From: Escherichia coli
GTDB taxonomy: Bacteria > Pseudomonadota > Gammaproteobacteria > Enterobacterales > Enterobacteriaceae
Assembly (NCBI RefSeq): GCF_016903815.1
Contig: NZ_CP069973.1
Length of the DNA stretch: 64,000 bases
Reading direction: 5' to 3' (one strand)
This document shows, piece after piece, positions 29,045 through 32,205 of the stretch (position 1 is the first letter of the stretch; each line of letters starts with the position of its first letter). The notes under the pieces are model-generated. The model made no database searches. It had not been told where the DNA came from and saw nothing but the letters and a program-made list of their open reading frames with translations. A program made the position numbers and the translations under genes.

Positions 29045-30138
29045 TCCTGAGCCAGAGAAAGCAGTATTTGCGTAACGCGCCCTGCGGAAAGCGGGGCGCT
29101 GTGAGTAAATACTGCTTGTTTATGTAGCCAGTCGATAAAATGTCTGCTGGTTGCTAAAGAGAGCATTTCTGCTTTGCTGTTATTTCCGCCCGTTAATGCA
29201 CATACCATTTTACGATTTTTGCCCTGAACCCAGAGTTGCCACTGATTTTTCCACCAGCCGTGATAAGTTGTTCCCTGAAAACGCCAGGGCATATTATCGG
29301 TATCGTCAGCTATTTCCTCTTCAATAAACCAAATCTCACCTTGCTGTTGGCGAAACAGATCAGCCCATGCCGTAATAATGGCACCTCTTAAAAAACACTC
29401 GTGTGAAATTACATGTGTTTTTACTGTAGGGAATAAAATATTCAGTACTCTGAAATGCCCGTGTGCAGTGATAACCGGACGCAGAATAACACCTTTAGCA
29501 TTGCGTTTGAGCGCTGCGCTGCCATATTGAATCTCATCAAACTGACTGCGGCGTAGAAATTGTGCTTCGCGCATATCAACGCGTTGTACAATATTACTCT
29601 CGTGTAACTCTGGTTCTGCATTCCCTCTGTATCGATAATGCAGACTTTCTCCAGCCTGATGCTGCGTGTAATTAGTAGAAAGATGAAGAATATTACCGCG
29701 AAGAGCATCAAAACTGATTAAAACATACAGTTTCTGCCCGCCGCTGGCTCCCTGAAATGGCACCAGAAGAGCAACCGTTTCGATTATTTCAGGAGGCGTT
29801 ATTTCTTTCTGATATTGTTTAGGTGTCCAGACTTTTTTGCAGTTACGACATTGAATGCGTTGCGACCCCTGTGGATTGTGGCCATAACAAATCGTCTTTG
29901 TGCCATAACATACCGGGCAGAAATGACCTTTCTCAGTTGCAAAAGTAGATAAGTGAACTGACAACCAGTCACGAAATTGCTGTTCGTCAAACAACGGCGG
30001 GTAACTTCCACATGCCCGACAGTGCAGTGCCGGATAACCCAGTCGATAGTCTGGCCAGCTGTAATCTGTCGATGTTGGTTGCCCTAAATTACGACAACCA
30101 AACGACTTGCAGGCATTAATCGTAAACAGAGTCGACAT
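29008..30138 (-). CDS. hypothetical protein with Cys-rich (putative zinc-ribbon) N-terminal region; not present at this locus in K-12 as I recall
   Basis: 376-aa ORF. N-terminal 110 aa contain four Cys pairs (C-x4-C, HC-x2-C, C-x2-C, C-x2-C). No family recognised. Region is more AT-rich than the flanking genes. The 3' end overlaps the metL 3' end by 37 nt. Confidence 0.55.
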   Translation of the reverse strand: MSTLFTINACKSFGCRNLGQPTSTDYSWPDYRLGYPALHCRACGSYPPLFDEQQFRDWLSVHLSTFATEKGHFCPVCYGTKTICYGHNPQGSQRIQCRNCKKVWTPKQYQKEITPPEIIETVALLVPFQGASGGQKLYVLISFDALRGNILHLSTNYTQHQAGESLHYRYRGNAEPELHESNIVQRVDMREAQFLRRSQFDEIQYGSAALKRNAKGVILRPVITAHGHFRVLNILFPTVKTHVISHECFLRGAIITAWADLFRQQQGEIWFIEEEIADDTDNMPWRFQGTTYHGWWKNQWQLWVQGKNRKMVCALTGGNNSKAEMLSLATSRHFIDWLHKQAVFTHSAPLSAGRVTQILLSLAQDYNNCARRLISD

Positions 30139-30270
30139 ATATCACCAACGATTTCACAAGGTCGTTGATTTTGTCCGGCAACTATCCCCTGCGGATGTGA
30201 TTACTCTCACATAAATAACTCTTTCAGAACGTAATGTAGCAATCCTTTAAATCACTGAAAGGGACTATTT

Positions 30271-31824
30271 ATGAAAATTAAAATACTTGCTGCGGGTATC
30301 GCATTAACATTGCCGTTCTGGGCTTGCGCCAAAGATGTCACCATCATTTATACCAACGACCTCCATGCGCATGTCGAGCCTTATAAAGTGCCGTGGATCG
30401 CTGATGGTAAACGGGATATTGGCGGCTGGGCAAATATCACTACGCTGGTTAAGCAAGAAAAAGCAAAAAATAAAGCGACATGGTTTTTTGATGCGGGTGA
30501 TTATTTTACCGGGCCATATATCAGCAGCCTGACCAAAGGTAAGGCTATTATCGATATTATGAATACTATGCCGTTTGATGCCGTCACGATAGGCAACCAT
30601 GAATTTGACCACGGCTGGGACAACACATTATTACAGTTGAGTCAGGCAAAATTCCCTATTGTGCAGGGCAATGTTTTTTATCAGAACAGCAGTAAATCAT
30701 TCTGGGATAAGCCATATACCATCATCGAAAAAGACGGTGTGAAAATAGGCGTTATAGGTTTGCACGGTGTATTTGCCTTTAATGACACGGTATCTGCGGC
30801 AACGCGAGTGGGGATTGAAGCGCGTGATGAAATTAAATGGCTACAACGTTATATCGATGAACTTAAAGGCAAGGTTGATTTGACCGTCGCCCTGATCCAT
30901 GAAGGTGTTCCGGCCCGCCAGTCCAGTATGGGAGGCACAGATGTGCGTCGCGCGCTGGATAAAGATATTCAGACGGCAAGTCAGGTGAAAGGGCTGGATA
31001 TTTTGATCACCGGACATGCGCATGTGGGTACGCCGGAACCGATTAAAGTCGGCAATACGCTCATCCTCTCCACTGACAGCGGCGGGATTGATGTGGGCAA
31101 ACTGGTTCTCGACTACAAAGAGAAGCCGCATGATTTTACGGTGAAAAACTTCGAGCTTAAAACCATTTACGCCGACGAGTGGAAGCCCGATCCGCAAACA
31201 AAACAGGTGATCGACGGCTGGAATAAAAAGCTTGATGAAGTGGTGCAACAAACGGTCGCGAAATCGCCGGTTGAATTAAAACGTGCCTATGGTGAATCGG
31301 CTTCCCTCGGGAACCTGGCGGCTGATGCTTTACTGGTAGCGGCGGGTAAAAACACCCAATTGGCGTTAACCAACTCTGGCGGCATTCGCAATGAGATCCC
31401 CGCAGGGGCGATTACGATGGGCGGCGTCATCAGTACCTTCCCGTTTCCCAACGAACTGGTGACGATGGATCTCACGGGTAAACAATTACGCAGTTTGATG
31501 GAACACGGCGCAAGTTTAAGTAATGGCGTTTTACAGGTATCGAAAGGCCTGGAAATGAAGTACGACAGCAGTAAGCCGGTTGGTCAGCGGGTAATCACGC
31601 TGACTCTGAATGGCAAACCGATTGAAGATGCGACGATTTACCACATTGCTACTCAGAGTTTCCTTGCTGATGGTGGAGATGGTTTTACCGCCTTTACCGA
31701 AGGGAAAGCGCGTAACACAACGGGCGGTTATTACGTTTATCACGCCGTGGTTGATTACTTCAAAGCGGGTAACACCATCACGGATGAACAGATCAACGGT
31801 ATGCGCGTGAAAGATATCAAGTAA
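30271..31824 (+). CDS. secreted 5'-nucleotidase / UDP-sugar hydrolase family metallophosphoesterase (UshA-like)
   Basis: 517-aa ORF with N-terminal signal peptide ([20 protein letters not shown]). Calcineurin-like phosphoesterase motifs ([27 protein letters not shown]) and C-terminal 5'-nucleotidase-type motifs ([19 protein letters not shown]). Divergent from the 376-aa ORF. Confidence 0.8.
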
Positions 31825-32132
31825 AAGTACGTATTGAGTTGATTCATCTGTTTGTTACCAGTTGATTTTGCAGATCCAGTATTCGGCCTACGCGAGGGCG
31901 CAGGCCGAATCAGATGCCTTAGCATCACCATCCGGTGGCAGGACGTTGTTTTTCGAATAAGCCCAGGTGTCGCTGTGTTGTCAGAATATCAGTCAAAACG
32001 TGCGAGGTGGATTGCGCTATAGAGAAATCTTTTATCGCCTCTAATTAAGATGAGTTTTTTTCAACTTCCCTGATTTTTCCTCACCATCATTGGTCATTTT
32101 TCGGTTGACGCCCTTTAGCTTTTCCTTCATCT

Positions 32133-32172
32133 TTACATCTGGACGTCTAAACGGATAGATGTGCACAACACA
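32133..32172. promoter_or_regulatory. met boxes (MetJ operator) upstream of metF
   Basis: Tandem 8-bp units ttacatct / ggacgtct / aaacggat / agatgtgc matching the AGACGTCT consensus, 35-70 bp upstream of the metF ATG. Confidence 0.65.
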
Positions 32173-32205
32173 ACATATAACTACAAGCGATTGATGAGGT
32201 AAGGT

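Follow-up and report, generated by a model that had tools for sequence, protein, structure and literature searches.

The metL-metF region of the window

In the stretch of 64,000 nucleotides of the Escherichia coli chromosome that was analysed here (contig NZ_CP069973.1 of assembly GCF_016903815.1; the whole stretch is referred to as the window) the genes metJ, metB and metL are followed by an open reading frame (ORF) of 376 amino acids (aa) on the minus strand, an ORF of 517 aa on the plus strand, metF and katG, where metL and metF are on the plus strand. The two ORFs in between metL and metF are the subject of this study. The 517-aa ORF encodes a secreted 5'-nucleotidase, and the 376-aa ORF encodes a Cys-rich protein (12 Cys, 9 of them within the first 100 residues), to which we refer as the partner. 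An earlier note, made from the sequence alone, had described a divergent pair of precisely this kind with an AT-rich spacer of 132 bp at 30139-30270, and the ORF coordinates turned out to be exact. The features of the locus are:

26612-29044, plus strand: metL, the left flank (ORF list and RefSeq annotation of the 100% identical strain 7/2)
29008-30138, minus strand: gene of the 376-aa, transposase-derived partner, a cytoplasmic protein (ORF list)
29059-29117, no strand: inverted repeat with 27-nt arms that are 78% complementary (repeat search)
30139-30270, no strand: divergent control region of 132 bp, with a G+C fraction (GC) of 0.386 (cross-genus alignment)
30271-31824, plus strand: gene of the secreted 5'-nucleotidase, 517 aa (ORF list, Pfam and PDB match)
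31881-31910, no strand: GC-rich palindrome resembling a repetitive extragenic palindrome (REP), 3' of the nucleotidase gene (repeat search)
32056-32205, plus strand: retained metF promoter and met-box region (98% identical over 150 bp to the spacer of E. coli B)
32206-33096, plus strand: metF, the right flank (ORF list and RefSeq annotation)

The spacer between metL and metF measures 348 bp in genomes of the K-12/B type and contains neither gene, in line with the few hundred bp that the note had given for K-12. Up to the metL stop codon the window is homologous to this empty site, and it is so again from 150 bp before metF onwards, so that the variable segment extends from 29045 to a right border at ~32055/32056, as derived from the comparison with the E. 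coli B genome. In its place the K-12/B spacer has 198 bp of unrelated sequence, i.e. a terminator and a REP-like sequence. The met boxes of metF are retained, as had been claimed, and fall within the 150 bp that match K-12/B. The islet had been placed at 29045-32205, of which the left border holds (it is the metL stop codon) and the right one does not; moreover, the 376-aa gene overlaps the 3' end of metL by 37 nt, so that the partner begins within the flank. The inverted repeat at 29059-29117 lies 15 nt past the metL stop codon, inside coding sequence near the 3' end of the 376-aa gene, which is convergent with metL, and may be a metL terminator embedded in that sequence.

Neither flanking repeats nor tRNA genes nor integrase or other mobility genes were found at the borders of the segment in the repeat search and the ORF list, and the search for direct or inverted repeats that could represent transposon or island borders yielded nothing convincing, i.e. 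no target-site duplication and no terminal inverted repeats. A near-repeat of 14 nt is present at the right border (ATGAGTTTTTTTCA, 32050-32063) and at the metF start codon (ATGAGCTTTTTTCA, 32206-32219), and a sequence resembling it is found at the equivalent upstream position in K-12/B.

In terms of composition, the two genes rank lowest in GC among the window's 34 ORFs with 250 aa or more (mean GC 0.535, sd 0.03), at 0.451 for the 376-aa gene (0.398 at third codon positions, GC3) and 0.479 for the nucleotidase gene, as compared to 0.585 for metL. The segment thus is more AT-rich than its flanks, as the note had observed.

Distribution and forms of the pair within E. coli

Taking as a carrier any genome with at least 80% of the region, we found 1837 carriers among 5426 complete E. 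coli genomes (~34%). The non-carriers, which include B, derivatives of K-12 and O157:H7, have the empty spacer, and the pair therefore is not a universal constituent of the species. Two forms occur. The short form, as in the window, was found in 1181 genomes, including strains labelled O25b:H4-ST131; the long form, found in 659 genomes, has an extra gene for a Tsx-like channel and two more nucleotidase genes downstream of the 376-aa gene. An example of the latter is E. coli MS20677 (NZ_CP082053.1; 9441-16631 of the extracted locus), in which the Tsx-like channel, the two extra nucleotidases, the partner and the divergent nucleotidase are found together. The partner protein is a mosaic between the two forms: the N-terminus is near-identical and the C-terminus has diverged, with an aa identity of 76% overall.

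The long form has been listed before as genomic region (GR) 31, a 7.8-kb region of the avian pathogenic E. coli (APEC) strain BEN2908 that extends from metL to metF. According to the passages of that paper that concern it, GR 31 is common to B2 strains of extraintestinal pathogenic (ExPEC) and adherent-invasive E. coli (AIEC), and its authors propose that it serves to process or transport nucleosides or nucleotides (PMC12928451). The chromosomal site and the divergent pair described there are the same as in the window, the difference being that GR 31 has the Tsx-like channel and the two further nucleotidases. The passages on metL, metF and the nucleotidase do not discuss the transposase-like gene or any synteny across genera (PMC12928451).

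In E. coli genomes the 376-aa gene is found at a median of one place per genome. A second, paralogous locus exists away from the met region, for instance in E. coli SCPM-O-B-8794, where the partner is divergent from a nucleotidase and is accompanied by one or two further nucleotidases, Tsx and another nucleotidase. As a consequence, some genomes contain two copies of the module.

The same site in other genera

To cover other species, one genome per species was scanned with a profile derived from a 12-sequence alignment of the partner, and the neighbouring genes were classified by blastx. A relative of the 376-aa protein is encoded at 37 loci, for 36 of which upstream sequence was available, and at 34 of these 36 a nucleotidase gene is divergently adjacent. 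The co-occurrence of the two genes, a check that the note had called for, thus is nearly complete. The adjacent nucleotidase is 87-99% identical at the protein level to that of the window in 33 of the 34 cases; the exception is Citrobacter Awk4, which has a paralogue in this place, with 72% identity to one of the long-form nucleotidases.

The pair resides between metL and metF, in the orientation of the window, in at least ten enterobacterial genera. Carriers are Pseudocitrobacter, E. whittamii, a further Escherichia species, eight Citrobacter species (including C. freundii), three Klebsiella species, Kosakonia, two Phytobacter species, Superficieibacter, two Kluyvera species and S. enterica arizonae. 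A paralogous copy elsewhere, with the partner divergent from one or more nucleotidases followed by Tsx and a further nucleotidase, is present in Enterobacter, in some E. coli and in some Citrobacter. In E. hormaechei the partner is divergent from two 5'-nucleotidases followed by Tsx.

With respect to E. whittamii, the synonymous divergence (dS) of the pair is 0.23-0.24 and that of metL and metF 0.26-0.35. At the distance of Citrobacter, Klebsiella and Kosakonia dS is saturated in the pair and about 1 in the met genes, whose codon usage is biased. The GC of the pair tracks that of the host, i.e. 0.45 in Escherichia, 0.52 in Citrobacter and 0.54-0.57 in Klebsiella.

The module is not intact everywhere. 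In S. enterica arizonae the partner gene is truncated (8001-8729 of the extracted locus) and the nucleotidase is of full length, and in Kluyvera genomosp. 3 both genes appear to be partial; these two loci look like cases of ongoing decay of the module. In C. freundii, a gene for a LysR-type regulator and a gene of the carboxymuconolactone-decarboxylase family are found at the same site between the nucleotidase and metF (6897-8272 of the extracted locus), from which it follows that the metL-metF spacer gathers different cargo in different genera.

The secreted 5'-nucleotidase

The 517-aa protein has an N-terminal Metallophos domain (PF00149, E 4e-12, residues 24-252) and a C-terminal 5_nucleotid_C substrate-binding domain (PF02872, E 1e-38, residues 335-477), preceded by a hydrophobic N-terminal signal sequence (~aa 1-20, judged by eye). 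Residues 19-517 are ~98% identical to the 'Nucleotidase' of PDB entries 3IVD/3IVE, the construct of which begins at residue 19-20; the two have the same domain architecture and differ by few substitutions, and the crystallized protein is the product of the same gene in another strain. We take these entries to be a structural-genomics structure of c4898 from CFT073, presumably with uridine or cytidine bound, where both the locus tag and the ligands are given provisionally. No paper on the substrate range or the physiological role of the 3IVD enzyme was found in the literature search.

The enzyme shares the two-domain fold of the periplasmic dimetal phosphoesterases UshA (the periplasmic UDP-sugar hydrolase/5'-nucleotidase of K-12), NadN, CpdB and YfkN. 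The UshA-type motifs are present, both those for metal binding (DxH, GDxxxG, GNHE and GHxH, which read NDLHAH, GDYFTG, GNHEFD and GHAH in the translation) and those for nucleotide binding in the C-terminal domain (GGIR, FPF and GGDGF). Nevertheless, the protein is far under the equivalog cut-off for UshA, and the curated NCBIfam cut-offs of UshA, NadN, CpdB, SoxB and Nt5e were all missed widely (e.g. 152 versus 600 bits for UshA and 134 versus 436 bits for NadN). By these scores it appears to form a separate subfamily, apart from the named UshA-like enzymes. Its ratio of non-synonymous to synonymous divergence (dN/dS) is 0.02-0.05. The likely role of the enzyme is the dephosphorylation of nucleotides in the periplasm.

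The partner protein and its relation to IS1

Neither a Pfam domain in the 376-aa protein nor a match of the PADLOC defence models to the partner or the nucleotidase was found. The partner comprises two zinc ribbons of the Cys4 type, C10/C15/C40/C43 and C74/C77/C97/C100, followed by an RNase H-like domain (~aa 118-376). The note had called it a Cys-rich protein of unknown function, which is accurate as to composition and passed over its descent from an IS1-type transposase, as becomes apparent from the following. Weak matches to the zinc ribbons of IS1 and IS1595 were obtained with NCBIfam (NF050000 and NF033558, aa 74-122, E 3e-4), and the second ribbon (aa 70-113) aligns with the zinc finger of IS1 InsA in a comparison of the family profile with InsAB' (hhalign, probability 96%, E 4e-9). 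In the case of the longer relatives, this alignment runs on through the helix-turn-helix (HTH) of InsA, and the proteins match positions 1-81, in one case 1-130, of the transpos_IS1 profile with 22-38 bits, where the cut-off is 100. The partner of the window scores 20.8 bits against the same cut-off, matches positions 1-48 of 199 and is gapped across the HTH. The linker at the HTH position measures 14-15 aa in the enterobacterial proteins of 371-403 aa, versus 55-98 aa in all relatives of at least 404 aa, so that the enterobacterial proteins of this length have lost an InsA-like HTH.

The C-terminal domain could not be connected to IS1 InsB (hhalign probability 0.3%), and there is hence no link of the core to IS1 at the sequence level. 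An AlphaFold model based on a 55-sequence alignment has a predicted local distance difference test score of 94.1 and a predicted template modelling score of 0.93, and shows the fold of RNase H-like transposases and integrases, with the matching strand order β1-β2-β3-α1-β4-α2-β5. Foldseek of this model against AFDB50 retrieved family members only, and a sequence search of the PDB with the family profile gave only spurious matches to C2H2 zinc fingers. The canonical positions of the first two Asp residues of a DDE (Asp-Asp-Glu) transposase, in β1 and after β4, are occupied by T121/P127 and R220/P221, and the sole carboxylate that is universally conserved in the family is E247, after β5. Given these non-acidic positions in the model, we infer that catalysis has been lost. 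Other polar residues of the domain are strongly conserved, namely R197, H228, H246, Y168, Y205, N156 and W295/296/300, next to E247.

In the database searches the family was found only in Gammaproteobacteria (118 clusters at 50% identity). Its members are named "cytoplasmic protein", "hypothetical protein" or "IS1 family transposase", depending on the source. The latter name is attached to the Klebsiella orthologue in many NCBI records, despite scores for the family of 20-38 bits where 100 are required, and its use for a fixed, single-copy host gene is likely a systematic mis-annotation. The gene is under purifying selection (dN/dS 0.08-0.17, taken over saturated dS), and the repeat search found no terminal inverted repeats around it. 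Being single-copy, syntenic, without terminal repeats and under purifying selection, the partner is a host gene that derives from an insertion sequence and not an insertion sequence itself.

The control region between the two genes

An alignment of 18 spacer sequences from at least ten genera has ~59 invariant and 20 nearly invariant columns, which makes the 132-bp spacer better conserved across genera than the 376-aa protein. Its elements are:

30146-30167, no strand: inverted repeat CAACGA-N10-TCGTTG, a candidate operator beside the start of the 376-aa gene
30168-30173, minus strand: candidate -10 hexamer CAAAAT of the 376-aa gene (sequence and conservation)
30196-30211, no strand: perfect CRP consensus site TGTGA-N6-TCACA, in the exact centre of the spacer
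30221-30227 and 30255-30261, no strand: inverted heptamers CTTTCAG and CTGAAAG, invariant in the alignment
30232-30237, plus strand: candidate -10 hexamer TAATGT of the nucleotidase gene (sequence and conservation)

The CRP site (TGTGATTACTCTCACA) is the sole exact match to the consensus in the window, where 0.07 would be expected by chance. Both half-sites are kept in nearly all aligned sequences, and CRP-like sites with one or two mismatches are found in the spacers of distant relatives. The centre of the site is at about -42.5 relative to the start implied by the putative -10 hexamer of the 376-aa gene and at about -40.5 relative to that of the nucleotidase gene, which suggests that two back-to-back class II promoters might share a single CRP site. 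The predicted transcription starts are at ~30161 (minus strand) and ~30244 (plus strand). A scan with the sigma-70 consensus revealed no strong promoter in the spacer; as weak matches are to be expected for activator-dependent promoters, the assignments of the -10 hexamers stay provisional.

The inverted repeat CAACGA-N10-TCGTTG sits at the predicted transcript start of the 376-aa gene. Its right half (AAATCGTTGGT) is invariant, and the left half shows changes at single positions that have no compensating counterpart, which favours a binding site for a protein over an RNA hairpin. The hairpin is disfavoured also because only 6 bp pair on the mRNA strand. Binding of a protein at this repeat would be consistent with such a pattern. 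The heptamers bracket the candidate -10 hexamer of the nucleotidase gene, and the second overlaps its Shine-Dalgarno sequence; they could act as an operator or as an element of the 5' untranslated region.

Rfam gave a single, chance-level match over 28800-32400 at E values up to 1, and hence no known riboswitch or small RNA is present at the locus. Operators for CytR, DeoR and PurR were looked for by eye in the spacer, by comparison with their consensus sequences, and none matched convincingly. A T/A-rich run followed by GTTG(G) is found within ~45 nt upstream of the partner start codon in all seven diverse spacers that were inspected (for instance AAATCGTTGG, AAATCTGTTGG, AAATATGTTGG, TTTTGTGTTGG and TTTTTTGTTGC; the copy of the window is in the region 30139-30175).

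Genome context of distant relatives

Distant relatives of the partner (22-40% identity) also adjoin genes related to nucleotides or nucleosides:

Proteus: 5'-nucleotidase, divergent
V. taketomensis: 5'-nucleotidase, divergent
Photobacterium nomapromontoriensis: 5'-nucleotidase, divergent
C. amalonaticus and Citrobacter Awk4: 5'-nucleotidase, divergent
P. ganghwense: 5'-nucleotidase, on the same strand, upstream
A metagenome contig and two Motilimonas species: NupC-type transporter and nucleoside phosphorylase, divergent
Salmonella Give: porin, class B acid phosphatase and class II cyclic-nucleotide phosphodiesterase, divergent

The neighbours thus vary, the functional theme is constant and the divergent layout is usually kept, which is what one would expect if the family consisted of local transcription factors. 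For a pathway enzyme, variable neighbours with a constant theme would be unusual.

A proposed role for the module and its alternatives

Taken together, we consider it probable that the pair is a long-resident, two-gene enterobacterial module that was lost in K-12-like E. coli and in which the transposase-derived partner regulates the adjacent scavenging gene or genes. The module would then be a scavenging system under catabolite control. Cyclic AMP (cAMP)-CRP, bound to the shared central site, whose distance to each candidate -10 hexamer is roughly that of class II promoters, would drive both genes and thereby switch on the periplasmic nucleotidase. The enzyme, after export via the Sec pathway, would dephosphorylate external nucleotides to nucleosides and phosphate that can be taken up, and in the long and the paralogous forms further nucleotidases and a Tsx-type channel would be made as well. 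The IS1-derived partner, which is probably a domesticated-transposase regulator, would act as the locus-specific regulator via the conserved elements of the spacer (the candidate operators), possibly in response to nucleosides or nucleotides. The broader proposition, that this IS1-descended gammaproteobacterial family with its catalytically degenerate RNase H-like core is as a whole dedicated to the regulation of extracellular nucleotide and nucleoside scavenging, is put forward tentatively, as a possibility that we rate somewhat below even. Its targets would encompass 5'-nucleotidases, Tsx channels and porins, NupC together with a phosphorylase, and an acid phosphatase along with a cyclic-nucleotide phosphodiesterase.

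With respect to the age of the module, the note had read the AT-richness of the segment and its absence from K-12 as consistent with horizontal acquisition. Both observations stand, and so do the polymorphism of the pair within E. coli, the lowest GC and GC3 of the window, and the existence of two structurally different versions between which the partner is mosaic. These could be explained by a recent islet that E. coli gained horizontally, the K-12 arrangement being ancestral. Two observations weigh against the long residence that we favour: relative to Pseudocitrobacter the pair has a dS of only 0.33-0.35, where the flanks have 0.76-1.05, which implies that some exchange of alleles took place, and together with the low GC this excess similarity shows that there was some horizontal exchange. 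Nonetheless, the site and the orientation are identical in at least ten genera, dS to E. whittamii is equal to that of the flanks, GC has the level of the host in Klebsiella and Citrobacter, and signatures of mobility (tRNA gene, integrase, target-site duplication, terminal inverted repeats) are absent. Moreover, the pair is found in genomes labelled ST131, in the B2 strains reported for GR 31 (PMC12928451, passages on that region) and in Escherichia other than E. coli. For these reasons ancestral residence with loss in K-12-like lineages is the most economical reading and fits the data best, the low GC being a property of the genes and not a mark of recent arrival, and we regard a recent gain as improbable. 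To establish recent acquisition, a low GC combined with absence from K-12 is not sufficient.

With respect to the function of the partner, the zinc-ribbon similarity to IS1/IS1595, the transposase/integrase fold of the model and the names in the NCBI records (many of them in Klebsiella) would suit an IS1-family transposase, active or decaying, that is adjacent to the nucleotidase by chance. This is hard to reconcile with a score far below the cut-off over a quarter of the profile, the absence of terminal inverted repeats and target duplications, the single place per genome, the synteny across genera, purifying selection, the non-acidic Asp positions and the absent link to InsB, and we give it next to no credence. 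A more serious contender, which we nevertheless deem unlikely, is that the partner works in the same salvage pathway as an enzyme of the cytoplasm or as a factor that processes nucleic acids, such as a nuclease with an RNase H fold or a nucleotide-binding protein that acts on imported material. It would account for the loss of the HTH in the enterobacterial subfamily and for the strong conservation of polar residues in the RNase H-like domain, and the RNase H fold is typically catalytic. What speaks for a regulator instead is that the partner genes vary among the relatives while the divergent layout is kept, that the longer relatives retain a DNA-binding module of zinc ribbon and HTH, and that non-acidic residues occupy the canonical positions of the catalytic Asp. 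There are nonetheless points that count against regulation by the partner. With the HTH lost, DNA binding by the 376-aa form would rest on the zinc ribbons alone; next to the universal E247, acidic residues are conserved at position 144 in 76% and at position 201 in 87% of the sequences, so that some residual catalysis may persist; the conserved motifs of the spacer could belong to other regulators; the intact nucleotidase beside a truncated partner in S. enterica arizonae indicates that the enzyme can persist without it; and our literature searches on transposase-derived regulators and on nucleotidase, Tsx and ExPEC topics, in which PMC12928451 was the sole relevant paper, found no experiment or paper to back a regulatory role.

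Relation to known systems and implications

InsA is a DNA-binding autorepressor of IS1. The partner resembles it in the second zinc ribbon and, in the case of the longer relatives, the HTH, and differs by an extra N-terminal zinc ribbon, the lack of an HTH in the enterobacterial subfamily and of inverted repeats, and its presence as a single-copy, syntenic gene under purifying selection. Domesticated transposases and nucleases that act as transcription factors are known from many eukaryotic examples and, in bacteria, from the TnpB-derived TldR repressors. Like these, the partner derives from a transposon, is kept at a fixed locus as a host gene in one copy and seems to have no function in transposition. 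Unlike TldR, it is of DDE/IS1 and not of TnpB descent, there is no sign of an RNA guide, as Rfam had no match, and its regulatory role is putative.

The islet itself is ordinary, i.e. a variable metabolic pair whose long form already had an entry among the genomic regions of B2 ExPEC, and the variable region, the enzyme and the structure of the enzyme were known. New, as far as the literature was searched, are the ancestral position of the pair between metL and metF across Enterobacteriaceae, the assignment of the partner to an uncharacterised and mis-annotated family that derives from IS1-type transposases, and the systematic connection of that family to genes for the scavenging of nucleotides and nucleosides and to a control region that is conserved and has a CRP site at its centre. 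The value therefore lies in the partner family, which is conserved, unannotated, of a domesticated-IS1-like nature and found beside scavenging genes in the sampled Enterobacterales, Vibrionales and Motilimonas, and which offers a directly testable case of the domestication of a transposase into a bacterial regulator. If the partner is a regulator, it would represent a new class of bacterial transcription factors that stem from a DDE transposase, it would explain how accessory nucleotide scavenging is controlled in ST131, in other ExPEC and in many Klebsiella, Citrobacter and Enterobacter, and it would correct a widespread mis-annotation as transposase.

Elsewhere in the window, a 1390-aa ORF at 18006-22178 (plus strand), located between priA and the rpmE/yiiX/metJ block, encodes the core protein of a rearrangement hotspot (RHS) element (NCBIfam NF041261, 2614 bits). 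The B2 strain MS20677 has no gene at the RHS position, which makes this a second variable segment in the same neighbourhood.

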